This document shows positions 1,301 through 55,495 of a stretch of 64,000 nucleotides of DNA, piece by piece; position 1 is the first letter of the stretch, and each line of letters starts with the position of its first letter. The stretch spans positions 64,001 to 128,000 of the forward strand of contig CM000436.1 of assembly GCA_000165345.1 (NCBI GenBank), in the 5' to 3' direction. The position numbers and the translations under genes were made by a program. The notes under the pieces were generated by a model that was not told the origin of the DNA, ran no database searches, and worked only from the letters and a program-made list of their open reading frames with translations.

Positions 1301-1575
1301 ATAAGGATGAAAAGCAAGAATTAATAATTAATAGTAAAATAATATTTAAAAAGTTGGTGTGAATCAACATGAGCTAGCTTTGTAATATGTATTGTGTTTC
1401 GTCCGAATATTTGTTGAAACTCGTGTTTTTTCGAATTAAAAGGATGCTTTTGTACCAAACAAAAGTTTTGTACATAATAGCTTTGTAGATAGGAAAGATA
1501 ATGTGAAAAATACATACATAATTAAAATGATTAAGGTCATTAGAATAAAATAAAAAAATGACAAAAAGATGGAAT

Positions 1576-1626
<51 letters not shown>

Positions 1627-1850
1627 GGTTTAATCAGAATACATAATATGGCAAGCAAATAGACTTCAACAAGTGGGGAAAGACTGAACAAAATATGTGG
1701 AATTTGTAGCAAGTGTGGGAAGGAGAGAATTATAATTAATTAATTAATTAAAGTTATTCAAGTTAATAGGGGAAAAGGAAAAAGAAACAAAACTGTGAGG
1801 TTTCTAGAATTGTAAGTATAAACAAAATAAGAAGAATATTCTAACCCAAT

Positions 1851-2858: not shown

Positions 2859-3182
2859 TTCTTTGTAAAATGTCTGTTTTTCCTATCTACTCATTTATCA
2901 TTTGTTTTCTTTTTTTTTCCTCACCTTAATTTTTCTCGTTTATGTTTTTTATCTGGCCTTATAAATTCCACGACTTTACGAGCATAAAACATTCAGGCAA
3001 TGAATTCGTGCATCCACGTCATGTGGAACGCCGGTATGGGAAATAAACTTGTTGGGGGGAAATTATTGCATGCAAACAGAGGCATCAGAAGAGTAAAAAG
3101 TTGGGAAATGAGAAAGGTATGAAAAAAATTGTTTTGAATATAAAAAAAAAAGTTAAAGCAAATAAGTATATATATTTGAAAT

Positions 3183-4901
3183 TCACTGGATAGCATTACA
3201 TTCAAAAGGAGCCAAGAAGTTTTCATATGAAGTGTAGTTAATTTTGGAGAGATACATTTGTGTGGCAGGTTTTCCAGTTTTTTGGAGTAGCTGGGGAATA
3301 AGTTGTACAGGAAGGAAAACAAAGCTTTCCCCATTGCTGAGAGACTTTAGAAGACCAAATTCATTGAAAGTCATAAGAATATCATTGCATTCAATTCTAG
3401 TCATCTCACTTAACTGTTGGACGGTGATAAACCTGGTATTTGGGCAGCATCCAATGGAAGGACAAGAAGATTTATCAGAATTTGCATCTGAATTCATTTT
3501 TCTCTCTTTTTGTTTTGAAGATCTGGTAGTCCTTTGAGTGGACTGAGTCTGATGAATAACATCTTGGAAATTACTTATAGTTGCAGCTTGTTTCAGTAAT
3601 GATTTCTCCTGAGGTTGGTCTTTTTGGGGTTTATTCCAAAGAATTACATCTTGAGAGCCGTCCATTAAAAGTTCTAGTAAAATATAGCCCCAATATGATA
3701 TATAAGAGACTCTACCAAGATCTGAAAGTGGTCTTTCAGGAGAGCCTGGCTTTTGCTCAAGATTTGAAAGGCAATATGAAAAGTTAATTAAGTACTTTCC
3801 ATAGCCCTTTCGCTGATATTGAGGAAGAATCATTATACAAGAAAGATTATTCTTGCTGAACTTTTCTTTTGAAAAATATCCAACAATGTGATAACCTTTA
3901 TCATCGCATTCAGTAAGGACATAAAACAAGAAGAGATGTACAGAGTTGTATAAAGTTTTATGATCCAAGAAAAGCTTTGAAAGGAAGCATAGATTTTCGC
4001 AATAAACTCTGGCAAGCCTTCCATCAACTTCAAACATGGAAAGTCCATCTTGTCTAATAAGCTCGTTTCCAGGGGGATAGAACATAATGCAACATCTCTG
4101 ATGTCTAGTATATTCATCTGAATGAGCAAAGAATGAGAGGCAAAATTCGCATATATATAAAATATCAACATTCTGTACCTCCTTAGGGTATGGAGAATAG
4201 TACCAAGTATCAACCACAAAAGGTCCCATAGCTATTTTGCCAATTGTCTTTACTTTGGTTAATTCTTCGTGCTCCTTTAAGTATTCTTCATCCATTCCTT
4301 CGTGTGCTATGTCATGATAATATGGAATCTCCCCAATAATTATGTCATCCTTTGCAACAGAAATATCTGAAGCTTTTAGTTTAGGTTTTGGAGGTTCATT
4401 AGTCGAAGCAGAGGCTTCTGAATTCTGGGTTTCATGGTCGTGTTTTGGCTTGCTGTGAGAAAGAGGTAAGTATTCATTTGGAATAACTCTCAAAGATTCC
4501 CATGTTAGCCAACAATCCAACCTACGATCTGTTCCTTCCCAGTGAATATAGTAGTCATAGTTCATTGCAGGATTAGTATTGCTTCCTTTAAGTTTTGCCC
4601 TTCTTCTCTCTCTACAGTGCACCACTAGAGCTGGCCTCCAGATTCTAATGAGATTGGAGCTTGAATGATCCATACCTTCTGGAAGTCTTAACAAAGGTTT
4701 TCCCGAACTCTTCTGAGCGGATTTTTGTCGATACTCACATCCCATTATTTGTGTCTTGGGTAGCAGTGCTCCCGGAAACTGCTTCATATAAATATCAAGT
4801 CCAGACATTCCTCCACTTTTCTTTTGTTCGCCAGAAGACACCTTCTGGCCTTTCTTAAGTACCTTTGTCGTATCATCTTTGCTACTCTTTGTCATCCACA
4901 C
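3183..4901 (-). CDS. MYST-family histone acetyltransferase (Esa1/Tip60/MOF-like) with an N-terminal chromo-barrel/tudor-knot.
   Basis: 572 aa. Chromo-barrel: YYIHWEGTDRRLDCWLTWESLRV. MYST core: VVDTWYYSPYP, C2HC finger LYICEFCLSFFAHSDEYTRHQRCC, acetyl-CoA motif QRKGYGKYLINFSYCLS. Confidence 0.85.
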   Translation of the reverse strand: MWMTKSSKDDTTKVLKKGQKVSSGEQKKSGGMSGLDIYMKQFPGALLPKTQIMGCEYRQKSAQKSSGKPLLRLPEGMDHSSSNLIRIWRPALVVHCRERRRAKLKGSNTNPAMNYDYYIHWEGTDRRLDCWLTWESLRVIPNEYLPLSHSKPKHDHETQNSEASASTNEPPKPKLKASDISVAKDDIIIGEIPYYHDIAHEGMDEEYLKEHEELTKVKTIGKIAMGPFVVDTWYYSPYPKEVQNVDILYICEFCLSFFAHSDEYTRHQRCCIMFYPPGNELIRQDGLSMFEVDGRLARVYCENLCFLSKLFLDHKTLYNSVHLFLFYVLTECDDKGYHIVGYFSKEKFSKNNLSCIMILPQYQRKGYGKYLINFSYCLSNLEQKPGSPERPLSDLGRVSYISYWGYILLELLMDGSQDVILWNKPQKDQPQEKSLLKQAATISNFQDVIHQTQSTQRTTRSSKQKERKMNSDANSDKSSCPSIGCCPNTRFITVQQLSEMTRIECNDILMTFNEFGLLKSLSNGESFVFLPVQLIPQLLQKTGKPATQMYLSKINYTSYENFLAPFECNAIQ

Positions 4902-18132: not shown

Positions 18133-19268
18133 TGTTTATTAATACTTAACTTATTACTCCCTAAATTAAATGTAATTTTTGTCAAGTTTTCTTCTCAAAT
18201 TAACATATGAATGTATAATTTGTAGAGTCCTTTGAATTAGCTCCAAATTAATCAAGAGGATGCTATCATCTAATTTTAATTATGTTTCTCAGCTTGGTTT
18301 TTTCTTTCCTTGACTATTAACTTTTTCCATAACTTTTTACATGTAATTTTCTTTTCAAAGAGACATGTACATAATTTGCACACATACCAATATGTATTAT
18401 CACTGGAATAACTCAATAATATAATTATGGTTTAAATTCTTTAAACACTCAGCAGTAATTTTTATGCATTTTTGCGTTTATTTGAGTAATCGATTAGTTG
18501 GTTTCCTAAAGATGTCCTTTTTTATGTTATGAATGTAAGAAAAAATGACTTATATCTCTCAATTATGATGTCTTGTTTATTCTTCAATCCAGGAAATATC
18601 TAATTCAAAATATTTTCTCGTTTCTTTAGTTTCTTTGGAAAAATATGGTAATTTGTTTTAACGTTGGATTACTTTTTTTTTTTTTTTTAATGATTAATTT
18701 TACGCAACTTGCATGCAAACACGTAATTGCAAGTTTTGTTACCGGTATTTACATGCGAACTTTCCACATAAAATTATCACTAAGGAATATCAGTGAAATT
18801 AAAGTTGAAGAAGATTGATTGAAAAAAAAAATCTAAAAATATGTGTTTTCAAGTGATAAGTTATTAAAATTACAAGTTTGATAGAGAAATATAAAATCGA
18901 AATGCCAATAAAAAAATCTTCATACTATTCTACTTAAAAGATTAATATAACAAACAGCCAGGAATTACACAAAAATAAATATTTGATAATTAGTAACTAA
19001 GTTTTTTTTAGAAATCGTATAATTTCTCATATTTATTTTCTGTAATGATTAAAAAGATCCATTTGTGTGGCGCCTTGCCCACGTAAGTGGATTTGTATAT
19101 ATGTAAAATTACATGCGTAATAAATAAAGCATAGGAAAAGGAAGAAATCGAATATTGAAGTATTTAGGTTTAAATATTTAACTTGAACAATTTTCAAGCA
19201 TTCAATACTCACATCCAGACGCACAGTTTATTTGTTAGATATAGTAGGTAATTTCTAATTTCGATTCA

Positions 19269-19812
19269 ATGGAAGAACAAGGTAGGTTTGATTATGCAAA
19301 TTTGTGAATGCAACTAATTATCTACAATTTAATTATTTTGAAAATATAAAGCAAGCACAAGTCAAAATCAAGTTCCAGCTTCTGTACTTTATCAGTCTCA
19401 AGTCAATCAAATGGGCCCAAACGGTGGAATGGGTATGGTTCAACAGGTTCCTGGACAATATTACCAGCCTCAACATGTTCCAGGGTTCAATCAATATGCA
19501 GGTTTAATGAGACCAGAGGGATTTCCAGTTTATACAACTCAATGGCCGAGCGCATTCCATGGAGGAGATCCAACTCAGGTTCAAGCACCCATACAAACTC
19601 AATATTTACCTAGCGAAACCCCTGTATATTATGCATCAGCACAATGGGATACTCAATCTTACCTCCCTATGAGCTATTATGCAGGAGCTTATGACCCAAA
19701 TGGAATGGCTTATCCATTCCCTCAATCTGGCTCCTTCCAATACGTACAAGATGGTCCAGTCATTCCAAGAAAGAGAGGTGCAAAGAAACGTTTATTCAAG
19801 TTTTGTTGCTAA
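19269..19812 (+). CDS. Q/Y/P-rich low-complexity protein with a basic C-terminus ending KKRLFKFCC. Proposed as two exons, join(19269..19281, 19352..19812); the 5' micro-exon is tentative.
   Basis: Main ORF 19411..19812. Upstream, ATGGAAGAACAAG is followed by GTAGGT and an ...ATAAAG acceptor. Splicing 19281 to 19352 gives an in-frame stop-free extension MEEQ-A-STSQNQVPASVLYQSQVNQ-MGPNGG. Confidence 0.35.
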
Positions 19813-20080
19813 CCATCAACTTTTTTTGGAGGATATGCGCATAATTTGCTGTAATACAACAAGGAATTGTTTCAGAATGCATGGAATTCTATTCTGTGTA
19901 AATATAAAGTGTTAGAATAAATTGAAGTATAGTATTTTTGATTCATGAAAAATCTTTCGGAATAAATTGGGGTAGGACCCAACTGAATGGTATTTTACCA
20001 TTTATTTTCACTCTATTTATTAATTTGTTCATTTATAATTTCTACATGTTTTTGAGTTGACCAAACTTAACATATATTCG

Positions 20081-20092
20081 TTTTGGCGGCCA
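20081..20092. promoter_or_regulatory. E2F-like box TTTTGGCGGCCA about 180 bp upstream of the RNase-PH-like exosome gene.
   Basis: Direct match. Confidence 0.45.
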
Positions 20093-20271
20093 TCTTTTTT
20101 TTTCTTACACGGCCGGAAATTGAGAGGTCGCTTTTTCTGAAAGTTACAAAATTATACATCTTAAGCGGATAATCGTGCAAAATTGAACATAGTTATACTC
20201 ATCAATATTACTTATAATTTGTTTAACTGAATTCTTTTCGTTTGGGAATATATTGTGACTTTTTAAAATCA

Positions 20272-21303
20272 ATGACGAAGTCTATATCTGACTCAGAAAA
20301 ACTATTCTTAGAAGACGGGGTTGACCAAGGAATTCGCAATGATGGAAGAGATTTGACCGATTTCAGGCCAATAGTTATTGCTCTGGATGTTATTTCTACT
20401 GCTAATGGATCTTCCCGTATAAGGAATGATGAACTTGATATTATTGTAGCTGTTAAGGTATGTTAATAATTGAATTAAAAACGATTTTAAACCCAATTTA
20501 AACTTATTCAGTGTGAGATAATCTCTGTTACAGGAAAGAATGAACCACAAACAGGGGGCTCTATTTTGGTTAATGTTGATTGGTAAGTTTTTTGAACAAT
20601 TTATTTTTCTTTATTATTGCTTTAATATTATTTAGTTCTAATATCATGGATAAAATATCCAATGTAGCACCATCATTCACAGAAGAGGACTATTCATTTT
20701 ATATAACAAACATTGTCAAGGATATGTGTTTTAAAAATTTTGATCTTTCAAAACTTACAATCTTAGAAAATAAACTCTATTGGAATATTTATATTGATGC
20801 AACTATCCTAAGTTTTGGAGGTAATATGGTTGATTGGGTAACTATAGCAATCCATACTGCTTTAAGAACTACAAGGTAAGCGATTACTTCTCAATTCTCT
20901 CATTTGGTATTTAAAATTTACTGAAAATTACGTCTACAGAATCCCAAAAATTCATGTTTCTCCCTCAATCTCAACAAAGGAGAATAACAAAGATGTATCA
21001 TATACTGTATCACCCTCAGTTTGCTCAGGCACACCGTTTCCTTTTCAAGATATCCCTTTCATAATTTCGGCTGGGTGCATTAGAGGTAAAGTAATATGGG
21101 ATATGAATATGCAAGAACAAATATGCTCAAAAACAATCATTGCACTCTCAATTAATTCAAAAGGAGAGTGCGTTGCAATGAACAAAGTCTACTCGAACAC
21201 TCTTGACCTAAACCTTATTCCAACTATAATTAACAAAGCAGCAGAGATTTCTTCTGAAATATCTAAATCATTAGATGAATTCTTCTCTAACAAACAAGTA
21301 TGA
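20272..21303 (+). CDS. RNA exosome RNase-PH-like subunit of the Rrp45/Rrp42/Rrp43 type. Four exons: join(20272..20457, 20512..20582, 20636..20875, 20940..21303).
   Basis: Each intron starts GTATGT/GTAAGT/GTAAGC and ends CAG/TAG/CAG. Phases are consistent (0, 2, 2). Spliced product: MTKSISDSEKLFLEDGVDQGIRNDGRDLTDFRPIVIALDVISTANGSSRIRNDELDIIVAVK | CEIISVTGKNEPQTGGSILVNVDC | SNIMDK...KLYWNIYIDATILSFGGNMVDWVTIAIHTALRTTR | IPKIHV...IPFIISAGCIRGKVIWDMNMQEQICSKTIIALSINSKGECVAMNK... This tracks human EXOSC9 (DGSA..LG.T.V...VK.E...P...GYV.NVD...KLVWVLYCD...DGN..DA...A..AAL). Two of the exons and a TTG-initiated first-exon ORF appear separately in the ORF track. Confidence 0.7.
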
Positions 21304-21440
21304 GCACACTAGTTAACTATAATTATATATTTTAATTTACATCTTTTATTTATTTTATTCGTAAATTTTCACACTTCCAAAGTTACCGCCAAAAGTGGGG
21401 CATAATTCAGGAGACGAATGACAGTACAAATAGTCAATTG

Positions 21441-21452
21441 TTGGGCGGGAAT
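21441..21452. promoter_or_regulatory. E2F-like box TTGGGCGGGAAT about 55 bp upstream of the AsnRS ATG. Nearby are TACCGCCAAAA (21384-21394) and GGAGACGAATG.
   Basis: Direct match. Confidence 0.5.
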
Positions 21453-21505
21453 GTAATATCTTTGCTTATTAAGCATTTTTACAAGCATAGAAACAGAAAA
21501 TAAAA

Positions 21506-44548: not shown

Positions 44549-46891
44549 TTATAGCAACTGGATTGGTAAGGTAGAATCTTCAATATTCTGTATTAAGTTG
44601 CAGATCTTTTCTCTAATTTCTTTATTATCATTAGGTTCTGTTAAAATTATTCTTTCTTTATAAAGTATATTAACTATAACATTTCTTTTGTTATCTCTGG
44701 TATCTTTTACCGAAAAATAAAAGTTTGGAAAGTTGTCTTTTTTACTATATTCATCAATTTCAAGATTCTTATCCTTAATTTGAGCTTCTATTTGAGGATG
44801 AATACCATCTATACATAATCCATAGTTATTTTCTATAGATGATCTTAAAGTATTATATATTTCAATGTCTGCTAGGCTATTTTCATCCTGTTTATTTTCT
44901 GATAGAAAAGCAATATAATCCAGAATCATGAATGAAAGAGTATCTACTACCAAATCACATAATTGTGAAGAATTCCATTGAATTATTAACTCATGATCAC
45001 CAAGATCATGCCCATCCTGTCCAATTTCTTTTATTATATATATTACAATACTATTTTCATATAGATAAATCATTTCATTATTTAATATAACATCATCAAA
45101 AGATTTCTCAATTTCTTTCTCCAATTTGTTTAGATCCATTACAAAATTCTTTGGTAATGGTATTCTCATTGTTTGTTTAATACAAGACTTTTTCACATCA
45201 ATGATTTCTGATACATCTTGTGGTTTCATTAATAATGTTGGTTCAAAAGGGCGCATAATCAATAAAGTTTCCTCAATATCAATTTTAGAACTTTCTCTTC
45301 TTATTTTTTTAATACCATTATTACTATTCATATCAATTTGATTATCTTTCTCTCCTTTAACAAACAATTGCTTCTCATTTTCTTCTTTTTCTGTCAAATT
45401 CTTGATTACATTGCAAATGCTTCCAATTGCATGTATTGCTTGTTGTGTAGGGAAAGTTAGTCCTACTTTTTGAAGAATTTCAGGAGCAAAAACAGCCAAA
45501 GATGGAGATAATTCTTTTAGCTTATCTTTAAGCTTCTTGCATTCTCCTCTTTCTCCATGAACAAGAATAACATTTGGGACTTTTAAACTGTTTATAAACT
45601 CTTGGGTCTGAGTAAAATCAGAGTGTGCTGAAAACGATATTTGGTCAAATTTAGCTCTCATTGGGATAACTTTTTCTCCAAGTTGAATCATTTCAGGCTC
45701 CTTACGAAGTTCATAAGCTGGTGTGCCTCTAACTGCATATCCTGTCAATATGATTCCATTTCTCTTATCTGGGGCCCAAATTTCAAAAATGTCACGGGAT
45801 GTACCATTTTGAAGCATACCTGGAGCTGCCATTACTACACAAGGACCTGGATTATAGATAATATCTTTAATTTCATTAAGTGAATTGACTGTTTTAATAT
45901 AATTGAATTGAAAAGGATTAATTCCTAAATCTGCTTGTCTTCTAACAGAATCTCCACACTGGTTGATATATGTCTCAAAGACTCTCATACATTTAATTGA
46001 CATAGGGGATGCATATATGATTGGAACATTTTGGATTGATGGAGTTCTCGACCAGTGTTCTTCTAGAATTAAAAGAAGTTCTTGAGCTCTGCCAATAGCA
46101 AATACTGGAAGCAAACATTTTCCTTTTCTTGTGATAATTGACTGAACTCCACCAAGAAACCTTTTTTCTCTATCAATTCGTGGTTCGTGTATTCTTGTCC
46201 CATATGTAGATTCACAAATCAAGACATGCACATCTATTGGAGGTATTTCTGCTCTTGGAACATGACGATCATCTTCTCTACTATAATCACCAGTATAAAG
46301 AATTCGAACTCCTCCAATTTCTACTAGAAACATACAAGCTCCCAATACATGTCCAGCTCCATAGCATGAAAATCTGATTCCATCCAGTTCAACTTGTTGT
46401 CTAAAATCGATAATTTCTGTCATATTAATAGCTTTCTCAATATCTTTTTCCGTATATAAGTTAATACTTGATAATGGTGCTTCCTCTGATTCGATGCTTC
46501 CGGCGGAGAATTTGTTAACTCTTGCATAGTCTTGCCAAACTAGTTTACAAATAGCCTTAGTAGGTTCAGTCATAAATACTTTACCATTAAAGTCTGTCAA
46601 ACTAACAAAGTAAGGAGTTGCCCCAGAATGATCCAAATGAAAATGAGTAATCAAACAAAGATCGATAGTACTCACATCTATTGCATCAAATACCGGAAGA
46701 GATCCAATGCCTGAAAATGCTGGATGTATTCCACAATCAAACATTACTGAACGACCTTTGAAGGATACGACAACGCATGAACGACCTACTTCACATCCTG
46801 CTCCAAGAACTTGAATATAGAGAGTCTCCCCTTCTATATCAATAGTCTGTTCAGTCACTCCTGAGTCCAAAACTACTTCATTGTAACTCAT
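44549..46891 (-). CDS. Cleavage and polyadenylation specificity factor 73-kDa subunit (CPSF3/Ysh1-like), a metallo-beta-lactamase/beta-CASP nuclease.
   Basis: 780 aa. LGAGCEVGRSCVVV, then ITHFHLDHSGATPYF (HxHxDH). Later His/Asp motifs (GHVLGA, YTGDYS, SAHSD) give the expected MBL/beta-CASP order. Confidence 0.78.
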   Translation of the reverse strand: MSYNEVVLDSGVTEQTIDIEGETLYIQVLGAGCEVGRSCVVVSFKGRSVMFDCGIHPAFSGIGSLPVFDAIDVSTIDLCLITHFHLDHSGATPYFVSLTDFNGKVFMTEPTKAICKLVWQDYARVNKFSAGSIESEEAPLSSINLYTEKDIEKAINMTEIIDFRQQVELDGIRFSCYGAGHVLGACMFLVEIGGVRILYTGDYSREDDRHVPRAEIPPIDVHVLICESTYGTRIHEPRIDREKRFLGGVQSIITRKGKCLLPVFAIGRAQELLLILEEHWSRTPSIQNVPIIYASPMSIKCMRVFETYINQCGDSVRRQADLGINPFQFNYIKTVNSLNEIKDIIYNPGPCVVMAAPGMLQNGTSRDIFEIWAPDKRNGIILTGYAVRGTPAYELRKEPEMIQLGEKVIPMRAKFDQISFSAHSDFTQTQEFINSLKVPNVILVHGERGECKKLKDKLKELSPSLAVFAPEILQKVGLTFPTQQAIHAIGSICNVIKNLTEKEENEKQLFVKGEKDNQIDMNSNNGIKKIRRESSKIDIEETLLIMRPFEPTLLMKPQDVSEIIDVKKSCIKQTMRIPLPKNFVMDLNKLEKEIEKSFDDVILNNEMIYLYENSIVIYIIKEIGQDGHDLGDHELIIQWNSSQLCDLVVDTLSFMILDYIAFLSENKQDENSLADIEIYNTLRSSIENNYGLCIDGIHPQIEAQIKDKNLEIDEYSKKDNFPNFYFSVKDTRDNKRNVIVNILYKERIILTEPNDNKEIREKICNLIQNIEDSTLPIQLL

Positions 46892-47090
46892 TTCTAATAT
46901 TCTTTAAATTAGCGCCAATAATCAATTCCTTTACATTTGTGAATCCAAAACCTTTATAGACAATCCAATACTCTTTCAATAAAAATAGCTTTAACTAAGA
47001 AGAAAATTATGATTTAAGTCACTTTTTCTTGAAATTTTTTTTTTCAATAAAAAAAACCCTTTCTTTTGGCATCTTTTTTTATCATAAACC

Positions 47091-47105
47091 TTTGGGCGGG
47101 AAATG
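47091..47105. promoter_or_regulatory. E2F/DP-like box TTTGGGCGGGAAATG about 200 bp upstream of CPSF-73.
   Basis: Direct match. Confidence 0.5.
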
Positions 47106-47235
47106 TAGATCACGAGACGATACATTTTAGGGTATCGGTATTAATTACGACAAAGTTTAAAAATTGTAATAAAATTTGGATTTTTAGATGAAAAATATGG
47201 ACACTGCCGGCTTAATTAGAATCGAAAATCTCTTA

Positions 47236-48225
47236 TCAAATTGAAAATGATTTGTAGTTTCCAATAGAAAATTTTGAGACGTTGTTATTAAAATAGTCAA
47301 TAAATGAATTTACAGTTTTTATAAGCTCCAGTTTGATTGTTTTTACAATTATGTAGTCTGGTTGATTATTCTCTTCATCAGGATCAAGACTTAGGTTATA
47401 TTCACCGAATGAAATATGATCTCCAATAAGTTTCGGTAATATTATTAGTAGTCTAAGTAAGTGCTCAATGCCAAATATTTCAGAAAATTTGGTGCTTTTT
47501 GTAATATTCTTCTCGAAGTAGCTAACTTGATTCATTTCTGATGGGTAAATAAGTCTCTTTTTGAGAGATTTATTGAAAATCTTTGTCAACATATTTAAAA
47601 TCAATTTCTGAATCTCTATTTCAGGGGAAGTTTCTTTCTTTTTCTTTATTAGATTACTTTCATAGATGATATATTCTGAAAAGATATCCTCAATGTTTGG
47701 GCTTTTGGGTAATATCACCAATTTTCCGTGACTTATTTGGTTTTTGTCATGTATCAAGACACTGTATATCATCTCAGAAAATTCAAACCATTCAACTTCT
47801 ATTTTATTAAAGTTTAATATTGAAATTTTCATCTCTTGTTGGGAGTGAAGCTTTCCAAGCATATCCTCAACTATTGCTCGATCTTGGTCTTTTAAGGCAT
47901 TTCGAAGCATTTTCTGAGTTTCAGCACTTTTTTTTCTCGTATATCCATCTATTTCAAATATGAGAGCTTCTGACTTCCACTCATTATAATCTTTATTGAA
48001 ATAATAATTCTTACTCCCAGTCTTGTGCTTTGTTACATATCCCACATAGTAAATGGGGTGCCACCCATTTGGATGTATTTTTAATGAAGTATCTAAAATA
48101 ATTGCTTTCCATAGTTGACCTTTCCATAATGAATAAACCAAATCACCGATTTTATGCTTAAATTTTACTTCATCCTTAACATTATGGGAGTGCAGCTCCT
48201 GGACTAATTTCTCCACATTTTTCAT
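47236..48225 (-). CDS. MRG-family chromatin protein (Eaf3/MRG15-like): N-terminal chromo-barrel plus C-terminal MRG domain.
   Basis: 329 aa. Chromo-barrel FKHKIGDLVYSLWKGQLWKAIILD...YYVGYVTKHKTGSKNYYFNKDYNEWKSEALIF. MRG-domain hallmark FGIEHLLRLLIILPKLIG (compare YGAPHLLRLFVRIGAML in MRG15). Confidence 0.62.
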   Translation of the reverse strand: MKNVEKLVQELHSHNVKDEVKFKHKIGDLVYSLWKGQLWKAIILDTSLKIHPNGWHPIYYVGYVTKHKTGSKNYYFNKDYNEWKSEALIFEIDGYTRKKSAETQKMLRNALKDQDRAIVEDMLGKLHSQQEMKISILNFNKIEVEWFEFSEMIYSVLIHDKNQISHGKLVILPKSPNIEDIFSEYIIYESNLIKKKKETSPEIEIQKLILNMLTKIFNKSLKKRLIYPSEMNQVSYFEKNITKSTKFSEIFGIEHLLRLLIILPKLIGDHISFGEYNLSLDPDEENNQPDYIIVKTIKLELIKTVNSFIDYFNNNVSKFSIGNYKSFSI

Positions 48226-49069
48226 TGGTTTCTATTTTTATCTAATATTAATAAAGTTGAACCTTGATAAATAACTAAATTACCACAACTTGAGTTTATC
48301 ACTCACATAAATTAGCTTAATCAATAATGATTAAATCAAATGTTAATATTAGCCTTTCTTTATTTTATTTGCTAATTTATTATTTTGTTTCTTTTTTCCC
48401 TTTCAGTTACTACATATTATACATGCCTTTTGTCTTGTCTGTGTTTAATAATATACCAGAAATTCATATAACAGCCTTTTTCCCCAAATTTTACCGCGCA
48501 TTTGACATTTTTATTTTTTAGGCCCATTTAAAATAATTCACACGGGCCCCACGTCTTGTCTCCAAAATAATTAAATATATTATTTAATCTTATTGGTATT
48601 GGCATAATGTCAAATAATTAGCATTAGAATGTGTAATGACTAGACAATAATATTCGAAAATGTATTTGAATAATTGTGATTAGCAAAATAAATAGTCTGA
48701 ATTAATATAATGTAATGAGGAGAATTTGATCATTAACCAAATTTTTTTTGAATTATTATAAATAATCTGAGATAATAAGATAAAAATTTTGAATTTCCAT
48801 ATAAATTAATCGGTTGGTTGGTTGGTAATTAAAATCTGTTTGTTCTTTAATTCTGGCTAGGTCAGATTCAAATATAATATTAATTGTGGTTTTATGAATC
48901 TTGAAATTTCAAGATCAAGGATTAATCTGAATTTATGACCAATCTTTAATCTCATTTTTTTTTTTTTGTGAAAAAACTCTTGGACTTCTTTTTATTTCCT
49001 ATATATATATTATAAGCGTGTATATAAATATATGCATAAAATATATATATTTAAATAAATAAAGGAAAT

Positions 49070-51991
49070 ATGGACCCGGACAAAAGTCTAAATGATCACC
49101 AATTAAATATTAAACAAGATGAAGTTTCTCTTCAAAGCTTACCAATAGATAATGATTTAAATCTGGACCACTCACAGAATAACTCACAAAATATTGATAT
49201 TTTCACAGTTAATGCTGATACAATTAATGATAGTAAAGATCAAAATAGTACTAATGAGTTAAATATGGAGGTTATTTCTGACCAAAAATCAACAAATCAA
49301 AGTGAAGATTTTGGCTCTAGGTCAAATTTAGATCAATTGATTAAGTATCCATTATTGGATAGTTTCAATCCCAAACCTGGATTCTTCCAGAAGCTGATTC
49401 ATTCTCGTGACTCAAAAACTCTGAAGGAGTACATTTTCAGCCCAATGAGATGTATTATCAACGATAGGGACTCATCAGGGTGTACTGCTCTGCACATTGC
49501 ACTTTTGAATGCTTATCCGGAGATGCTGGAGATCCTCTTAAGCTGCCAGTCAGAAGATTTAAGACCAAATAATAGTACTGAAAATACTTATATTGCTGGT
49601 GATTCTTTATCAAATACTGCGTACCAAAATAATAATATTATTCCAATTGATTTGTCTATTCCATATGCTGGTATACCAATTTCTCATCTAGTACTTTGTA
49701 AGGCAATTTTTCCAGAGAGATATGAGGATTGTATGAATTGTTTATATCTTCTTTTGCCTTTTACATTAACTCATGGTACTTCTCAAAATGTATCATGGCT
49801 GGATATTAACGCTACAGATCAGCTTGGAATTACTGCATTACATTTAGCATGTAGCTTTGGTGATTCAAAAATTGTATCTTTATTACTAGAATATGGTGCA
49901 TTAGCAAATATTTCAGATTTGAATAATGATGAACCAATTCATCATGCCATATCAAGCAGAGATCCTGATACGCTTTCTGTAATGCTTTCAAGTGGAGGTG
50001 CTGACCCATTGAAAGAAACAACTTGCACAGCGAACTTAATAAAATGTTGTATAGATAAATCAGCGTGGAGATGCCTTCATACATTACTGACAGATTCAGA
50101 ATATCAGCAACATCCTATTTCTGAGAGTGAATATGATTTGCTTTCTTTTCATGCACAAAAACTGGGATTAGGATCTGAATTTGAAAGAGTATTTTCTATA
50201 GCTGTTGAAATTGCCACTAATGATGAATCCGAGCAAAGAAGGGTAGGAATAAATGAAAGTCTAATTGCAGATGGCCCTTCAATGGGACTAGCTTCAACTA
50301 GAATATTCACACATGGTTGTTGCATAGACCATATTTCTCTTCCAGAACCAATGGATATGCCAATTAGACGTTCAAAATTAGTGAATAAGATTCCAGAGAA
50401 TCCAACACGTATGGAAGTATTAGTCAAACCAAATGTTGGAATTTTAAAGAGTAATGAGTTTTCATTACTTCAATGGACTGAGTCGTGTAAGCCTGCAATA
50501 TTATCAGATATTCTTAGAGTTCATGATTGGGCATATGTTCGTTTATTACAACATAAGGTTGAAGAAAGCCGATTAATTTGGGATCAAAGACCATTTCTTA
50601 CCGGATCTATAGATGATGATACCCAGTTAACTCCAGGTTCTTGGAAAGCAGCTTTACATGCTAGTGGCTCAGTTATTAATGCCGTTGATTGTGTCTGCAG
50701 AGGCGAGAATCGAAATGCCTTTTGTGCTATAAGGCCTCCTGGACATCATCTTGGAACATGGGGAGCTGCGCAAACAGTTGGTACTGATGAAGGAATTCCA
50801 TCAGGATCACAAGGATTTTGCCTATTAAATAACGTTGCAATAGGTGCGGCTTATTGTAGGTATACATACTCCAATTTAGGTATTTCAAAGATTGCTATTA
50901 TAGATTTTGATGTGCATCATGGTAATGGTACTGAACAAATTGTCCGAAATGCATCTCCAGGAAATAGGAAGATCAAAACATTGTTTAATCCAGTTCCTGG
51001 TATCAACTTGGATTTGGAGCAGGATATATCTTATTATAAGATTTGGAGGGATGAACTTGATGCGGAAAATATATTTTTTTCAAGTGTTCATGCGTATGAT
51101 GGCACATTTTATCCAGGTACAGGGCCAGATCAATGTATTTCTAAGCCTAATATTATTAATATTGGACTCTCAGAAAAGACCACTTCAAAAATCTTCAGGA
51201 ACAAAATTAAGAGATTTTTGTTACCAAAGCTTCTTCAATTTAGGCCTAATATTATTTTCATTTCAGCAGGATTCGATGGCCATGTTATAGATATTGTGGG
51301 AAAAGGATTCACTTCATGCACTGAGGGAGATTATGCATGGCTTACCCAACAGCTGATAAGTATTGCAAATCTTTGTTGTAATGGTAGAATTGTATCAGTT
51401 TTAGAAGGAGGATATAATACAAAAGCTTTAAGCCTTTCACCTCTGGCAAAGTCTGTCGCAGCTCATGTGAGAACTTTACAGTGGACTTCTCCAAACTTAA
51501 TGCCAAATCCACAAGAGTGGGATGATGAGTTATTAACCGAAGATAATGAAGATCTTGAGAATGAAGATAATGATATAACTGATCACAGAGATTCTGGCGT
51601 TTTTGACGGCTATCCCAATAATGATCTAATCGCTTTTGGTAATTCAAATGTTATTAGCTATAATGCTGATAATCTGAACAATTCAAGCAATTCTAATCAT
51701 TATGTTGTTGATACTGGAGGAGAAGCATCTTATTCACCAAGCTTGAAAAGATATAAATCTCAAGAAAAGAGCGAAACAGATGAAAACCCGCCATCTAACA
51801 ATGATTCATCTTCAGCAGTATTTTCTAACTCTCAAATGGGGAGTTATGAAGTTCATAGCAATGCTAGTAATGTTATTAGGCCAAAGCGAGCAGCGGCGAT
51901 TAAAGCTGAAGAAAGTATCCAAAAGAAGATTCAATCTGAATTGGATTCTTCAAAACAAATTAATGGCAATAACTTGAGCGAAAATATTTGA
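49070..51991 (+). CDS. Histone deacetylase (class II/HDA1-like catalytic domain) with N-terminal ankyrin repeats and a long Ser/Asn-rich C-terminal tail.
   Basis: 973 aa. Ankyrin repeats: GCTALHIALLNAYPEMLEILL, GITALHLACSFGDSKIVSLLLEYGALANISD. HDAC core: RPPGHHLG, GFCLLNNVAIGAAY, IIDFDVHHGNGTEQIV, FSSVHAYDGTFYPGTG, ISAGFDGH, VLEGGYN. Confidence 0.85.
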   Translation: MDPDKSLNDHQLNIKQDEVSLQSLPIDNDLNLDHSQNNSQNIDIFTVNADTINDSKDQNSTNELNMEVISDQKSTNQSEDFGSRSNLDQLIKYPLLDSFNPKPGFFQKLIHSRDSKTLKEYIFSPMRCIINDRDSSGCTALHIALLNAYPEMLEILLSCQSEDLRPNNSTENTYIAGDSLSNTAYQNNNIIPIDLSIPYAGIPISHLVLCKAIFPERYEDCMNCLYLLLPFTLTHGTSQNVSWLDINATDQLGITALHLACSFGDSKIVSLLLEYGALANISDLNNDEPIHHAISSRDPDTLSVMLSSGGADPLKETTCTANLIKCCIDKSAWRCLHTLLTDSEYQQHPISESEYDLLSFHAQKLGLGSEFERVFSIAVEIATNDESEQRRVGINESLIADGPSMGLASTRIFTHGCCIDHISLPEPMDMPIRRSKLVNKIPENPTRMEVLVKPNVGILKSNEFSLLQWTESCKPAILSDILRVHDWAYVRLLQHKVEESRLIWDQRPFLTGSIDDDTQLTPGSWKAALHASGSVINAVDCVCRGENRNAFCAIRPPGHHLGTWGAAQTVGTDEGIPSGSQGFCLLNNVAIGAAYCRYTYSNLGISKIAIIDFDVHHGNGTEQIVRNASPGNRKIKTLFNPVPGINLDLEQDISYYKIWRDELDAENIFFSSVHAYDGTFYPGTGPDQCISKPNIINIGLSEKTTSKIFRNKIKRFLLPKLLQFRPNIIFISAGFDGHVIDIVGKGFTSCTEGDYAWLTQQLISIANLCCNGRIVSVLEGGYNTKALSLSPLAKSVAAHVRTLQWTSPNLMPNPQEWDDELLTEDNEDLENEDNDITDHRDSGVFDGYPNNDLIAFGNSNVISYNADNLNNSSNSNHYVVDTGGEASYSPSLKRYKSQEKSETDENPPSNNDSSSAVFSNSQMGSYEVHSNASNVIRPKRAAAIKAEESIQKKIQSELDSSKQINGNNLSENI

Positions 51992-52182
51992 GCCTTTTTG
52001 TTCATTTTTTCTTTTTAGATAACAATCTCGTTATTGTATATTCATAGCTTTAATTATTATATTTTTTTTTTAAATAGTTTTCTAAAGAAATAATTTTTAA
52101 AAACTTTCTCCTATAAAAATTAGTAAATTACCTATTACGTCATTTTTTACATATAGCTTTTGTACACGTATAATCATCTATA

Positions 52183-52208
52183 TACCGGTATTGCATGCAT
52201 CCACATGA
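52183..52208. promoter_or_regulatory. Composite ATACCGGTATTGCATGCATCCACATG (TACCGGTA palindrome, then GCATGCA, then CCACATG) about 520 bp upstream of the SAS-6 gene. A further TTTTGCATGCCTCCCC at about 52236.
   Basis: Direct match. The same three element types co-occur at 28718-28752 and 43355-43470. Confidence 0.45.
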
Positions 52209-52723
52209 ATTTACAAACATCAATAAAAAAAACTTTTGCATGCCTCCCCACATAAGCAATTGCGCGGTACTAGTTAGAGCAAAAAAAAAAAGTGAGTTAA
52301 TTCATTTTAATATTGTAAAAGAGAGGAAATAAAGAGTTTCTAAAAGAGGGTGGAAGGTAGGAATTAATAGCAAATAATTAAGTGACTAAAAAGTAAGGAG
52401 GAGGATAGATGTAAGATTTGGTCTCAGTTGGTGAATTCTTCAAGTTTATTTTGTGTAATTAGAGTTTATTTGCTGAAATACTGTGGATGAGAATCGCGGA
52501 ATAATATTTCTGGTTACTTTTTATATGAAAAGTTTTAATAAATAATTAGGTTTAAGAAAAGAGTGATTTGAATTCTACTGGCTGCTATAAAAAAAGAAAC
52601 CGTAATAAAATTTATAATACTTATACATTGTAACGTTTTTCAAGTAATAGAGCAATAATTACTGATTTTGTGAAATAGAAGAAATTCTGAGTTTTCAAGA
52701 ATCAATGCTAATTTAAGTTTGAT

Positions 52724-55495
52724 ATGCATAATTCAATGAATTTCCATGAAGAAATGGAATTGCGAAATAGCGAAAGTTTAAGAATAGAAAGCGACTTTGA
52801 AACATTTCAAGGACGTAAGAGTAGAACAGGGTATAACAGGTTTTTGAATGATGATGAGGTTGAAAACGTCGTACACATAAAAGATGTACCAATTTATATA
52901 AAATATAATTCAATTTCTTCAACATGTACTAGCACAGCCCCATCCACCCCAAACTCTCGTGAATTTGACCGTCTAGAAAATAATGCAAGACTTAATAACA
53001 ACATTGTAAATAATGAAAGTTTGCCGCTCCGTTCACAAGTTTCTCACTTTGGAAAGGTGGGAGAGGAAGGATTTTGTAATAATACAGGTAATAGTTTTGG
53101 TAGTTCATTATATAATAGAGGAGGAATTTTGGAGAGCTCGAATATGACTATGCAGTTTTTTAACTTCAGGATAGTTAAAAGAAGGCACTATTCAAGTTCC
53201 AGTAACTTATTAAAAAGTTTTAACAGAGTACATATAGAAATGACCAAGCCGAACGATTTTTCTTTCTTATTGAATAGCGATATTAATGATGGAAATGACT
53301 TTCTACACTTGAAATCAGAACAACGACTTTTGGTTGATTTTCAGGAATTTCCGGTGATGCTGGTTGATTTATTGAATAGGTCTAAGGGAAATGGGTTTTC
53401 TGAAAGCTATTTTGATGCAAGAGTGAATAATAAAGGCATAAATATAGAAAAGGAGACAGTATTTCCTGGTATAAATAGGTACGATCCTGGTAATTTACGG
53501 TCCAGCTTTTCTCCATCAGCAAGCGATAATTTGAACTCACTCAAGATTGTTTTGAACTTGAATATTTCAGAAGGAGGGATAGAGCAGTCATATTTAGGGG
53601 GGCTATCTTCAGGAGCAACTTTCAATTCTGCAGTATTAAGTCGGGTTGATTCATCTACATTGCATTTTGTGGAATTAAACCATTACAAGGAAATTGTTCA
53701 CTTATCACTTCCATTTGAGATGGCTAATGAAGCTTTCTTTAGGGACTATATTTTAAGACATTTGAATAATTATTTTGATTTGTCTAATAGACAACAGAAG
53801 ATAATTACTGGCTATGAGGCAGATCTAGAGTCATTAAGGAAGGAAATAGGACTACTTAATGAGAAACTTTCAAAGACTAATTATCTCTCAGCTCAGAATG
53901 AACGTGATATGTCTGAAAAGTTCCAAGCTGAGATTAAGAGAATTTTTGAAAGGTATGAAAACGATTACAATCAGATAAAAATGATTTATGAGGATACACA
54001 TAATAGAGAGTTGGAGCACTGGAACCAAGAAAGATTATCAAATGAAAAGAAAATTAAAGATTTGCAACAACAACTTGACGAACTTGGAAATGCATTTAAT
54101 GAGCTTAGTAAGTCAAAATCTAGCTTGGAAAGGTATATCAAGGATGACAAAGAAACTAATAATGGGCTTAAAGCTAAGCTGGAGGCAATTCAAAGCTCAT
54201 ATGACGTATTATCCAAGATAAAGGATGAGCAGGAACAAGAGTTGAACAACTTAAAGCTGGAGTATAACAGTTCTATTGAGGCCAATAAGACTCTGAGGGA
54301 CGAAATAGATAAAAAGAAAAAAGAAATTAGTGAGTTAGATACCGCATTAGACGATGCATGCAAAGAGATCGAGAAAGGAAATCAAATTATTTCAAGCCTT
54401 CAGACATCTTTGGGAAATGTAGATTCTAAGTATAAGCAACAAATGACAAGTTTTAGTAATCTAAAAAGGAGTTTTCAGCAAATTGAAAGCAAGAATAGGA
54501 ATTTTGAGGAACGGATTAAGGACTATGAACAATCATTGGATGATTCAAATAATCGTCAGGAACAGCTTATAGAGGAAAATGAGAGATTGAGGAAGATTTT
54601 AATCGAAGCTGAGAGACAAATTGAGGTAAATCAAAGCGTCATATCATCATTGAAGAGACAAATATCTATCAATGAATCGAATTTTTATGGCTTTGACCAC
54701 AATTTTAATGCTGGAATGTCCAGGAGTTACTCTAAATCTTATCAGGGTTTATATAATACTATAGGCTCAGGACAAAGTAATTTAGCTTCTCTGAGTGGGA
54801 CCCACTATTCACTCGGAAACTTGCAGCCAGCTATTGCTTCCGTTTCGGCATCTCGAAGTTCGTATCTCGGTACACAATCGATTAACTCTGTCAAACATAG
54901 AAAGAGATCAGAAGCTACATTTGATGCTAATTCCGTTAATAGAAAATATTCTATGTCTGTTCAGCCAAGAAGATCTCAGACTTGGACAATGGAAAGCGTA
55001 AATCATGAACCGAGATACACTAGTGAAGCTTTTGAAGTAAAAAATCAAAAGAGAAGTGCTGAGACATCGAGCTCAAGGGATCGCCAGAGGATTTCAAGCT
55101 CTTTATATTATCGTGATTTAAATGATGGAACCGGACATGGTGGAGGTAGCAATAATAAAAAGGCATTAGAGACTATAGATGAAAGAGCTTCTTCTATTTT
55201 CACTCCACCAAATAACAGGAAAAAATTAGAGGAAGCTGGAAAGAACAGAAATATTAATTCAAAGAATACTACTAAAGCTTATAAGGAAGGAGAGATTCTT
55301 AATATGGAAGGAACTACATCGTTTGATATTACTGATAAAACAGAAGTTGAAAGGAGCGATTACCACGAAATTGACGATATATTATTTCAACTGGAAGGAA
55401 CTGGAGATAGTTTTGAAAGATCAGCCAAAGATTTGACCACTCCAAGACTTAAAACTCCAATTAAGCCGGTAATATCTGACAACAATGGGAGCTAG
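52724..55495 (+). CDS. SAS6: SAS-6 (spindle assembly abnormal 6, centriole/cartwheel protein) homologue with a long N-terminal extension. Alternative start at 53144.
   Basis: 923 aa. PISA/head domain: RVHIEMTKPNDFSFLLNSDINDGNDFLHLKSEQRLLVDFQEFPVMLVDLLNRS (compare human RVSIRMSIEL...[47 protein letters not shown]). LHFVELNHYKEIVHLSL matches LNVVETNPFKHLTHLSL. A ~300-aa coiled coil follows. MTMQFFNF at 53144 aligns with the human head-domain start. Confidence 0.7.
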   Translation: MHNSMNFHEEMELRNSESLRIESDFETFQGRKSRTGYNRFLNDDEVENVVHIKDVPIYIKYNSISSTCTSTAPSTPNSREFDRLENNARLNNNIVNNESLPLRSQVSHFGKVGEEGFCNNTGNSFGSSLYNRGGILESSNMTMQFFNFRIVKRRHYSSSSNLLKSFNRVHIEMTKPNDFSFLLNSDINDGNDFLHLKSEQRLLVDFQEFPVMLVDLLNRSKGNGFSESYFDARVNNKGINIEKETVFPGINRYDPGNLRSSFSPSASDNLNSLKIVLNLNISEGGIEQSYLGGLSSGATFNSAVLSRVDSSTLHFVELNHYKEIVHLSLPFEMANEAFFRDYILRHLNNYFDLSNRQQKIITGYEADLESLRKEIGLLNEKLSKTNYLSAQNERDMSEKFQAEIKRIFERYENDYNQIKMIYEDTHNRELEHWNQERLSNEKKIKDLQQQLDELGNAFNELSKSKSSLERYIKDDKETNNGLKAKLEAIQSSYDVLSKIKDEQEQELNNLKLEYNSSIEANKTLRDEIDKKKKEISELDTALDDACKEIEKGNQIISSLQTSLGNVDSKYKQQMTSFSNLKRSFQQIESKNRNFEERIKDYEQSLDDSNNRQEQLIEENERLRKILIEAERQIEVNQSVISSLKRQISINESNFYGFDHNFNAGMSRSYSKSYQGLYNTIGSGQSNLASLSGTHYSLGNLQPAIASVSASRSSYLGTQSINSVKHRKRSEATFDANSVNRKYSMSVQPRRSQTWTMESVNHEPRYTSEAFEVKNQKRSAETSSSRDRQRISSSLYYRDLNDGTGHGGGSNNKKALETIDERASSIFTPPNNRKKLEEAGKNRNINSKNTTKAYKEGEILNMEGTTSFDITDKTEVERSDYHEIDDILFQLEGTGDSFERSAKDLTTPRLKTPIKPVISDNNGS

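Follow-up and report, generated by a model that had tools for sequence, protein, structure and literature searches.

Two chromatin genes lie head to head within the 64,000-nucleotide stretch of Cryptosporidium parvum chromosome 8 analysed here (the window). The first, cgd8_480, occupies 49070..51991 on the + strand, starts with ATG and encodes CpHDAC3, a 973 aa ankyrin-repeat class II-type Zn-dependent lysine deacetylase. The second, cgd8_470 (also cpbgf_800470), occupies 47236..48225 on the - strand, likewise starts with ATG and encodes a 329 aa homolog of Eaf3/MRG15; it is an already annotated MRG gene (Oberstaller Table S1). The protein encoded by the 973 aa ORF is matched exactly on the C. 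parvum chromosomes CM109968.1 and CP141125.1, and the primers used by Mauzy for cgd8_480 and cgd8_470 map to 51038-51059 and 47451-47474, inside the 973 aa and the 329 aa ORF, respectively. Between the two genes lies a divergent spacer of 844 bp (48226..49069), AT-rich (23% GC), that holds both promoters. A preliminary description of this DNA had given the head-to-head arrangement and the limits of the spacer correctly. The gene downstream of cgd8_480 is cgd8_490, encoding SAS-6.

A MYST acetyltransferase is encoded at 3183-4901 on the - strand, as had been described, with matches to MOZ_SAS (6.6e-68), zf-MYST and Tudor-knot. Its gene lies 44 kb away from the pair in a window of mixed housekeeping content, in keeping with the earlier remark that its proximity may be coincidental. 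We rejected the view of the window as a chromatin gene cluster: beyond the MYST, MRG and HDAC genes it carries only a housekeeping mix, including genes for ribosomal proteins, a tRNA synthetase, V-ATPase E, MutS, the RNA polymerase subunit Rpb3, CPSF73 and SAS-6.

The ankyrin-repeat deacetylase CpHDAC3

The ankyrin-deacetylase of the window is the already published CpHDAC3. Rider and Zhu reportedly described an ankyrin-repeat class II-type histone deacetylase of this name in 2009 (Int J Parasitol 39:747), under a title that is said to name Ank-HDAC relatives in photosynthetic eukaryotes; among the relatives that we found, the green alga Trebouxia is such an example. Their CpHDAC3 and cgd8_480 are the same gene, with the same Ank plus class II HDAC architecture and no gene-level difference. 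A review equates cgd8_480 with HDAC3 (PMC12246861), and a 2026 preprint speaks of "the ankyrin-repeat-containing CpHDAC3" and assigns it to class II. According to passages in later papers citing Rider & Zhu 2009, CpHDAC3 was cloned and expressed, and the recombinant protein is active and responds to vorinostat by inhibition. CpHDAC3 is thus a published enzyme and already a drug-target candidate.

The deacetylase catalytic domain spans residues 442-789 (50393..51436, + strand), as delimited by Pfam PF00850, alignment to the structure 5ji5 and Foldseek. The Hist_deacetyl match (E=1.7e-62, 211.9 bits where the cut-off is 27.9) covers profile positions 2-289 of 298, a complete core, so that ORF and Pfam agree with the 973 aa fusion that had been proposed. 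The residues H559/H560 (50744-50749), D614 (50909-50911), H616 (50915-50917), D736 (51275-51277) and Y782 (51413-51415) align with their equivalents in 5ji5. Furthermore, H559-H560, the DxDxH motif D612/D614/H616, D736 and G780-G781-Y782 are invariant in an alignment of 16 members of the Ank-HDAC family (16/16), which bears out the HH, DxH and GGY residues picked earlier by eye. The sequence thus shows the canonical set, in which the HH pair acts as charge relay, D-H-D bind the zinc and Tyr serves the transition state; activity is as reported in the literature. Two family-specific inserts (residues ~561-581 and ~628-675) are found in the catalytic domain.

Upstream of the catalytic domain, an ankyrin-type repeat scaffold extends over residues ~103-346 (49376..50107, + strand), delineated by Pfam, AlphaFold and PDB matches. 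The Pfam models Ank, Ank_2, Ank_3, Ank_4 and Ank_5 all score above their cut-offs in two stretches, the best being 244-313. The "at least two" repeats of the preliminary description are therefore exceeded: the AlphaFold model, confident at residues 101-390, displays ~5-6 ankyrin-type helix hairpins (helix pairs at pLDDT 76-91) in a series that a disordered insert breaks at 163-188. Matches of this region in the PDB are DARPin and ankyrin structures. The scaffold most likely supplies protein-protein targeting. At the other end of the protein, a long disordered, low-complexity tail precedes a conserved C-terminal helix (residues 940-966, 51887..51967, + strand) seen in the AlphaFold model, in which R940 and E957 are almost invariant across the aligned Ank-HDAC family.

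The Eaf3/MRG15 homolog cgd8_470

The neighbour had been described as a chromo-barrel/MRG protein, and both domains were recovered. The MRG domain (47422..47805, - strand) covers residues 141-268 by Pfam, with a helical region running to ~320; the PF05712 match has E=1.5e-21 and 77.1 bits, where the cut-off is 22.8. The MRG profile matches are structures of Eaf3, MORF4L1 and MSL3 (7e-13 to 1e-9). The chromo-barrel domain was placed at residues ~22-92 (47950..48162, - strand), with a variable loop at 65-78, by model, Foldseek and alignment; a Pfam search at E<=0.1 returned no chromo-barrel or Tudor-knot match. The AlphaFold model displays an N-terminal beta domain of five strands at low confidence (mean pLDDT 58). 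Foldseek with this model retrieved Eaf3 in Rpd3S and the chromo domains of MRG15, MRG701 and MRG2 (TM to target 0.59-0.79). Likewise, BLASTP aligned cgd8_470 from one end to the other with an Eaf3 of the fungus Rhizophagus (E=2e-18), and alignments with canonical Eaf3 proteins, made by BLASTP and HMMER, extend through the chromo-barrel region. Four aromatic residues, W39, Y59, Y63 and W83, do not vary among 12 orthologs and fall in barrel strands of the low-confidence model; they are candidates for a cage of the kind with which MRG-family proteins bind H3K36me2/3 or H3K4me3.

In a search of 1.8 billion proteins the next-best homologs of cgd8_470 were canonical Eaf3/MORF4L1 proteins. Neither a word-indexed profile search nor an exhaustive HMMER search placed a second MRG paralog near the top, with 1059 weaker matches below. 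As judged from these searches, cgd8_470 appears to be a single-copy gene and the only detectable Eaf3/MRG15 homolog. By homology, its chromo barrel would be expected to read methylated H3, and its MRG domain to dock into NuA4-type (MYST) and/or Sin3/Rpd3-type (class I HDAC) complexes. A literature search found no interaction data for apicomplexan MRG proteins.

The divergent spacer

The preliminary description had seen in the spacer a shared promoter that hints at a co-regulated reader-eraser pair. Put in full, a bidirectional promoter would co-regulate the MRG reader and the Ank-HDAC eraser, and the MRG protein would bring the deacetylase to chromatin that carries methyl marks. C. parvum has many bidirectional promoters, more than half of its regulatory ATAC peaks being annotated as such (polycistron/ATAC preprint), and each species' spacer carries a single E2F-like and a single G-box-like site. 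Divergent junctions account for 8 of the 28 in the window, with spacers of about 1 kb (471-3373 bp), among which 844 bp is typical.

The E2F-like site TTTACCGCGC lies at 48490..48499 on the + strand. Such sites are present in all divergent spacers of the window (8/8), and 163 of 200 expression clusters contain genes that have one upstream (PMC3734150). We therefore rejected it as evidence of co-regulation: being so widespread, it is uninformative for the MRG/HDAC pair, with nothing specific to these two genes. The G-box-like element at 48547..48555 reads CCCCACGTC on the + strand and GACGTGGGG on the MRG-sense (-) strand. It occurs once per species, on the MRG-sense strand every time, with a chance of 0.004-0.067 per spacer. 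Words shared across the species' spacers were AT-rich only, and the k-mer comparison revealed no common central GC-rich element. An Rfam scan of 46800-52800 gave no match, thus no known ncRNA in the spacer. The 844-bp spacer carries promoter elements of a kind usual in C. parvum.

Expression of the two genes

We compared the transcript profiles of the two genes in qRT-PCR data from mixed-stage in vitro cultures sampled at 7 time points (Mauzy 2012 Table S1). Transcripts of cgd8_470 were undetectable at 2 h and climbed to 42% of their total at 72 h, whereas those of cgd8_480 peaked at 6 h (28%) and 24 h (23%) and were lower by 72 h. The cgd8_480 profile is biphasic, early and mid, and different from that of its neighbour. 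With noisy replicates, the Spearman coefficients in four independent time courses were 0.07, 0.21, 0.29 and 0.04, and the mean profiles gave 0.14 (p=0.76). Instead, cgd8_470 correlates with cgd8_490 and cgd8_770 (0.96). The cgd8_470 transcript is ~30x as abundant as that of cgd8_480, and among the clusters of Oberstaller 2013, cgd8_470 belongs to cluster 112 and cgd8_480 lies outside it. The expression data thus contradict the proposed co-regulation; uncorrelated profiles were the very outcome that the preliminary description had named as refuting it.

Genes peaking at 72 h have been linked to G-box motifs and to cgd8_810, the ApiAP2 protein that binds them (PMC3734150). The MRG-sense orientation of the G-box-like element fits the late, 72-h-peaking profile of cgd8_470.

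Conservation of the locus

Head-to-head order of the MRG and HDAC genes was found in every Cryptosporidium species examined, and the order CPSF73-MRG-HDAC-SAS6 is retained in C. ubiquitum, C. felis, C. ryanae and C. serpentis. This genus-wide conservation would favour co-regulation. Against it, at four Ank-HDAC loci outside Cryptosporidium no MRG gene was found within +-10 kb.

The MRG gene is intact in C. serpentis. In both C. muris and C. andersoni it has lost its ATG and has a stop at codon 59 and identical frameshifts, with extra stops in each species. Substitutions in these two species are spread evenly over the codon positions of the MRG gene (0.082/0.074/0.074), as opposed to 0.009/0.008/0.048 for the HDAC gene. 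Their copy of the MRG gene is a pseudogene evolving neutrally, beside an HDAC gene under purifying selection. With or without an intact MRG gene, the HDAC keeps a length of 956 aa and more than 90% identity among C. serpentis, C. muris and C. andersoni. Together with the missing adjacency outside the genus, a pseudogene beside a conserved HDAC speaks against the functional coupling of the pair that had been suggested.

The pseudogene is seen in genomic assemblies only, and an assembly error or unrecognised introns could mimic such decay, in which case it would be uninformative on coupling. We regard this as extremely improbable. The entire 1838-bp gap reads the same in three independent assemblies of C. 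andersoni, and the lost ATG, the codon-59 stop and the frameshifts are common to C. andersoni and C. muris RN66. The stops fall inside conserved blocks, away from plausible intron borders, and the even spread of MRG substitutions is unlike that of the flanking genes on the same contigs. Furthermore, the word-indexed profile search and the exhaustive search both returned no annotated MRG protein from C. muris or C. andersoni.

The two proteins might be partners even if their genes are not co-transcribed. MRG domains bind an FxLP pattern in Pf1 and MRGBP, and CpHDAC3 contains F716-L-L-P719, which fits this pattern and whose P719 is invariant in the Ank-HDAC family. The MRG domain of intestinal Cryptosporidium would then dock on CpHDAC3, at an FxLP-type motif or at the ankyrin scaffold for example; the adjacency kept throughout the genus would be a relic of this link, and the gastric species C. 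muris and C. andersoni would have lost the module or rewired it. However, FLLP sits in a helix-to-strand element before the zinc-ligand strand (ISAGFD) and aligns with 'IWLPRL' of the bacterial 5ji5, so it is a buried element of the fold that is kept in relatives with no MRG partner. We therefore rejected residues 716-719 as an MRG-binding motif. In addition, the HDAC shows no relaxation after the supposed loss of its partner. Such a partnership is, in our estimate, highly improbable.

A related conjecture, to which we give an equally slender chance, is that in intestinal Cryptosporidium cgd8_470 is a targeting subunit of CpHDAC3 that acts late, when the MRG protein is abundant, the MRG decay in C. 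muris and C. andersoni then being a lineage-specific rewiring of chromatin targeting. If it were true, cgd8_470 and CpHDAC3 would form an MRG-class II HDAC module of a kind unknown elsewhere.

Discussion

Our data argue, with a probability of roughly 85%, that cgd8_470 and cgd8_480 are two separately regulated chromatin genes that happen to lie head to head, their pairing reflecting genus-specific synteny in a gene-dense genome and not a functional module. Of the traits of a co-regulated pair, the locus has the head-to-head arrangement with a short spacer; correlated expression and selective retention of the pairing are both missing, the latter because the pairing is absent at the four non-Cryptosporidium loci and an MRG pseudogene stands beside an intact HDAC. 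As there is no co-expression and the MRG gene has decayed in two related species, the pairing resembles the gene order that is usual in a compact genome. Co-regulation from a shared promoter is accordingly very unlikely, the more so as MRG is decaying neutrally beside an HDAC under selection in C. muris and C. andersoni.

Expression and comparative genomics both argue that reader and eraser are independent, and functional coupling should not be deduced from adjacency in the compact C. parvum genome. A small by-product of the analysis, possibly of interest to Cryptosporidium chromatin biologists, is the MRG pseudogene. With the loss of MRG, C. muris and C. andersoni are in effect natural knock-outs, which suggests that this gastric lineage can do without MRG-dependent targeting.

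Compared with known MRG proteins, cgd8_470 has the two-domain architecture, chromo barrel plus MRG, of Eaf3, MRG15 (MORF4L1) and Alp13. It is nevertheless very divergent from them (~25% identity), with a lineage-specific loop at 65-78 and a barrel missed by the Tudor-knot model. Eaf3, MRG15 and Alp13 serve as subunits in NuA4/TIP60 as well as in the Rpd3S, Clr6-II and SIN3B complexes, and in Rpd3S and SIN3B the partner of the MRG protein is the class I enzyme Rpd3/HDAC1-2, not a class II enzyme. In C. parvum the class I HDACs are cgd6_80 and cgd6_1380. The earlier statement that MRG proteins recruit deacetylases in other eukaryotes thus stands insofar as they are found in HDAC complexes (our PDB matches include Eaf3 in Rpd3S and MRG15 in SIN3B), which lends co-regulation some plausibility. 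It does not readily carry over to this pair, in which the neighbour CpHDAC3 is class II-type and nearest to bacterial HdaH-like enzymes.

On sequence and model, CpHDAC3 is best assigned to the class II HDACs and not to class I (Rpd3/HDAC1-3,8). Its sequence matches in the PDB are, in order, 5ji5, HDAC6, HdaH, HDAH, HDAC4, Clr3 and HDA15, and Foldseek gave the same order. With fungal Hda1/Clr3 it shares the class II catalytic fold and the catalytic Tyr (GGY). Unlike them, it has an ankyrin N-terminus, no Arb2 domain (by Pfam) and no context of an Hda2/Hda3-type partner, and Clr3 (5ikk) scores 80 bits, below the bacterial-type relatives. We therefore rejected a strict Hda1/Clr3 subfamily assignment, and the label "HDA1-type" given to it earlier holds in the loose sense of class II. 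Its nearest solved relative is the bacterial HDAC-family protein of Burkholderia phymatum, 5ji5 (166 bits, 31% identity, Foldseek TM 0.84), and HdaH, HDAH and HDAC6 CD1/CD2 are the next closest. CpHDAC3 has the HH, DxH, D and GGY residues in common with the bacterial HDAC-family and the class IIb enzymes HDAC6 and HDAC10, and differs from them in carrying an N-terminal ankyrin scaffold, two inserts in the catalytic domain and long disordered N- and C-terminal tails.

Identity of the divergent genes

The window is Cryptosporidium DNA of ~30% GC whose densely packed ORFs are for the most part uninterrupted. As the preliminary description had it, two ORFs stand head to head: the deacetylase (HDAC) ORF at 49070-51991 (+, 973 aa) and the MRG ORF at 47236-48225 (-, 329 aa). 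Between them lies a spacer of 844 bp. An identical copy of the 973-aa protein is found on the C. parvum assemblies CM109968.1 and CP141125.1, ~112 kb from one end, and its C. hominis counterpart shows 98% identity. Of the published qRT-PCR primers, those for cgd8_470 fall with 0 mismatches inside the MRG ORF (47451-47474, -) and those for cgd8_480, likewise without mismatch, inside the HDAC ORF (51038-51059, +). Furthermore, the gene downstream of the HDAC (52724-55495) is SAS-6 by Pfam, listed in the literature as cgd8_490. Thus, the MRG gene is cgd8_470 and the deacetylase is cgd8_480, the already known CpHDAC3 (Rider & Zhu 2009).

With Tudor-knot, zf-MYST and MOZ_SAS domains, the product of the ORF at 3183-4901 (-) is clearly a MYST acetyltransferase of the Esa1/Tip60 type; according to a 2025 review, the original C. 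parvum reference genome lacks an annotated MYST HAT (PMC12246861). Since the ORF as listed opens with GTG, translation probably starts at an ATG further downstream. Lying ~20 genes off, its occurrence near the pair is a coincidence, as had been suspected. The remaining genes of the window are a housekeeping mix. The 3.4 kb between two divergent genes at 18133-21505, unusually long for the window, contain no ORF of at least 150 aa and could conceal a gene that is short, non-coding or split by introns.

Expression of MRG and HDAC is uncorrelated

The two genes had been proposed to form a reader-eraser pair co-regulated from a shared promoter. Both were measured in four infection time courses by Mauzy et al. 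(2012). The MRG transcript is undetectable at 2 h and climbs steadily, with 72 h accounting for 42% of the summed signal. The HDAC transcript has its maxima at 6 h and 24 h and is down by 72 h. Spearman coefficients of MRG versus HDAC were 0.07, 0.21, 0.29 and 0.04 in the four courses; the mean profiles gave 0.14 (p=0.76). In the same courses the coefficient of MRG with SAS-6 and with cgd8_770, two genes that have no promoter in common with it, is 0.96. In the clustering of Oberstaller et al. (2013), cgd8_470 belongs to cluster 112 with a membership of 0.98, and cgd8_480 falls outside this cluster. Together, the uncorrelated profiles (0.04-0.29), an outcome that the preliminary description had itself named as refuting its idea, and the absence of cgd8_480 from cluster 112 speak against co-regulation. 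The tracking of cgd8_490 by cgd8_470 is almost perfect though the HDAC gene stands between them, both genes rising late.

MRG has decayed in two gastric species

MRG has become a pseudogene in C. muris RN66 (locus L012, ~1489-2712, -) and in C. andersoni (loci L009, L010 and L011, ~1490-2710, -), and is intact in C. serpentis (locus L013, 1474-2703, -; 409 aa); all are orthologous to window 47236-48225. Both decayed copies carry GTG instead of ATG and have in common a stop at codon 59 and frameshifts. In C. andersoni, codon 5 is also a stop, and TAG stands at the conserved Trp of 'NEW'; the C. muris copy has many further stops. An 1838-bp gap is identical in three independent C. andersoni assemblies. 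Between the two species, MRG substitutions fall evenly on the three codon positions (0.082/0.074/0.074) and many indels have lengths not divisible by three, whereas HDAC (0.009/0.008/0.048) and CPSF73 (0.010/0.010/0.055) bear the signature of purifying selection. The HDAC is 956 aa and >90% identical in C. serpentis, C. muris and C. andersoni; its conservation where MRG has decayed indicates that the deacetylase is independent of its neighbor. Because the lesions are common to C. muris and C. andersoni and the gene of C. serpentis, a related gastric species, is intact, the loss dates to the muris/andersoni ancestor. We found no MRG paralog among the top matches of the profile searches, the decayed gene being the only detectable Eaf3/MRG15 homolog. 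The pseudogene is a modest by-product that may merit a line in a comparative-genomics paper.

The pairing is unremarkable in its genomic setting

The gene order CPSF73-MRG-HDAC-SAS6 is retained in C. ubiquitum, C. felis, C. ryanae and C. serpentis, as expected for a strongly syntenic genus. Outside Cryptosporidium, none of four loci has an MRG gene within 10 kb of the Ank-HDAC by called genes, Pfam or six-frame HMM search (best E=0.26). Head-to-head junctions make up 8/28 of those in the window, with spacers of 471-3373 bp, so the 844-bp spacer is typical. Of the ATAC regulatory peaks of C. parvum, more than half carry the annotation bidirectional promoter. Expression, phylogenetic distribution, co-retention and base rates all speak against a meaningful pairing, and the idea of a co-regulated reader-eraser pair finds no support.

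The closest non-Cryptosporidium Ank-HDAC (P0010, 35% identity) lies at 1341-3800 of the metagenome contig L017 (ERZ27263703 k141_1777137), which is eukaryotic, has 48% GC and is extremely compact, with intergenic gaps of ~15-50 bp. An EF-hand gene is directly downstream of P0010; in Cryptosporidium, an EF-hand gene is two genes downstream of the HDAC.

Elements of the spacer

The MRG-HDAC spacer has 23% GC and matches no Rfam family. Each species' spacer contains one E2F-like site, which is uninformative and was ruled out as a mark of this pair because it occurs in 8/8 divergent spacers of the window and because 163/200 C. parvum expression clusters include genes with an upstream E2F motif (PMC3734150).

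A G-box-like element (hexamer GTGGGG) is located at 48547-48555 on the MRG-sense strand. Exactly one such hexamer, always on that strand, is present in each species' spacer (the window and loci L013-L016), the chance per spacer being 0.004-0.067 for what is a post hoc observation. Positions are not orthologous: the distance to the MRG ATG is 322 bp in C. parvum and 1-89 bp in the other species. C. parvum has a decayed copy, ACCACAAC, at the site of the C. ubiquitum G-box, which suggests motif turnover under constraint. G-boxes and the G-box-binding ApiAP2 cgd8_810 are linked to genes peaking at 72 h (Oberstaller et al., PMC3734150), which fits the MRG profile and not that of the HDAC. We infer that the spacer may consist of two promoters of an ordinary kind, the G-box acting on the MRG side.

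The deacetylase

The fusion of ankyrin repeats with a deacetylase core holds: Pfam recognizes the Hist_deacetyl domain in full (residues 442-789, E=1.7e-62), ankyrin families exceed its thresholds, and the AlphaFold model displays five to six ankyrin-type helix hairpins. Mean pLDDT is 59 overall and 76-91 over residues 101-390; the termini are disordered, with a conserved C-terminal helix at 940-966. We aligned 16 proteins of the same architecture, from nine Cryptosporidium species, five metagenomic eukaryotes and the green alga Trebouxia. The catalytic residues, previously judged intact by eye, are invariant throughout (H559-H560, D612/D614/H616, D736, G780-G781-Y782). Judging by homology, the ankyrin scaffold probably targets the deacetylase via protein-protein contacts. 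Enzyme activity is reported in the literature: according to two later papers, CpHDAC3 was produced as a recombinant protein and vorinostat inhibits its deacetylase activity. A 2025 review (PMC12246861) lists cgd8_480 as HDAC3, 'not stage-specific'. Published HDAC class statements conflict with one another.

In the model, the catalytic domain contains two family-specific inserts, ~561-581 and ~628-675, which could matter for inhibitor selectivity. These inserts relative to 5ji5 (window 50744-51100) are conserved in the Ank-HDAC family (invariant G562, G565, P630, G644, W659, D661 and D664); the first starts right behind the catalytic His pair, and both have low pLDDT.

The MRG protein

cgd8_470 passes the MRG-domain profile search (residues 141-268, Pfam E=1.5e-21), bearing out its description as Eaf3/MRG15-like. 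Pfam matches no chromo or Tudor-knot domain. A chromo barrel is nevertheless supported by a low-confidence model (pLDDT 58) with five beta strands at residues 29-91, by Foldseek matches of the N-terminus to the chromo domains of MRG15, MRG701 and MRG2, and by BLASTP, in which residues 22-329 align end to end with canonical fungal Eaf3 (E=2e-18). The aromatic residues W39, Y59, Y63 and W83 do not vary among 12 orthologs. Below 1e-30, exhaustive HMMER searching of 1.8 billion representatives returned only three Cryptosporidium ortholog clusters, so the gene appears to be single-copy in the genus; the next matches were ordinary Eaf3/MORF4L1 of fungi, animals and stramenopiles.

Comparison with known deacetylase systems

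Together our data confirm the Ank-HDAC/MRG observation and its structural interpretation. The label 'HDA1-type' stands as far as class II is concerned and fails for the fungal Hda1/Clr3 kind. By sequence and predicted fold, the nearest solved structure is the bacterial HDAC-family 5ji5 (166 bits, 31% identity, TM 0.84), followed by bacterial HdaH/HDAH, HDAC6 and HDAC10, class IIa enzymes and Clr3. Thus, cgd8_480 is of class II type and not specifically of the fungal kind, from which it also differs in having no Arb2 domain by Pfam.

The whole chain of cgd8_470 matches Eaf3 within Rpd3S (8jho_O, Foldseek E=4e-6). By homology, it is probably a reader of methylated H3 that docks into complexes of the NuA4 (MYST) or Sin3/Rpd3 type. 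The solved MRG-HDAC assemblies matched (Rpd3S, SIN3B) all contain a class I deacetylase, whereas cgd8_480 is class II-type. The expected partners of cgd8_470 would be the two class I HDACs of C. parvum (2026 preprint), rather than its class II-type neighbor.
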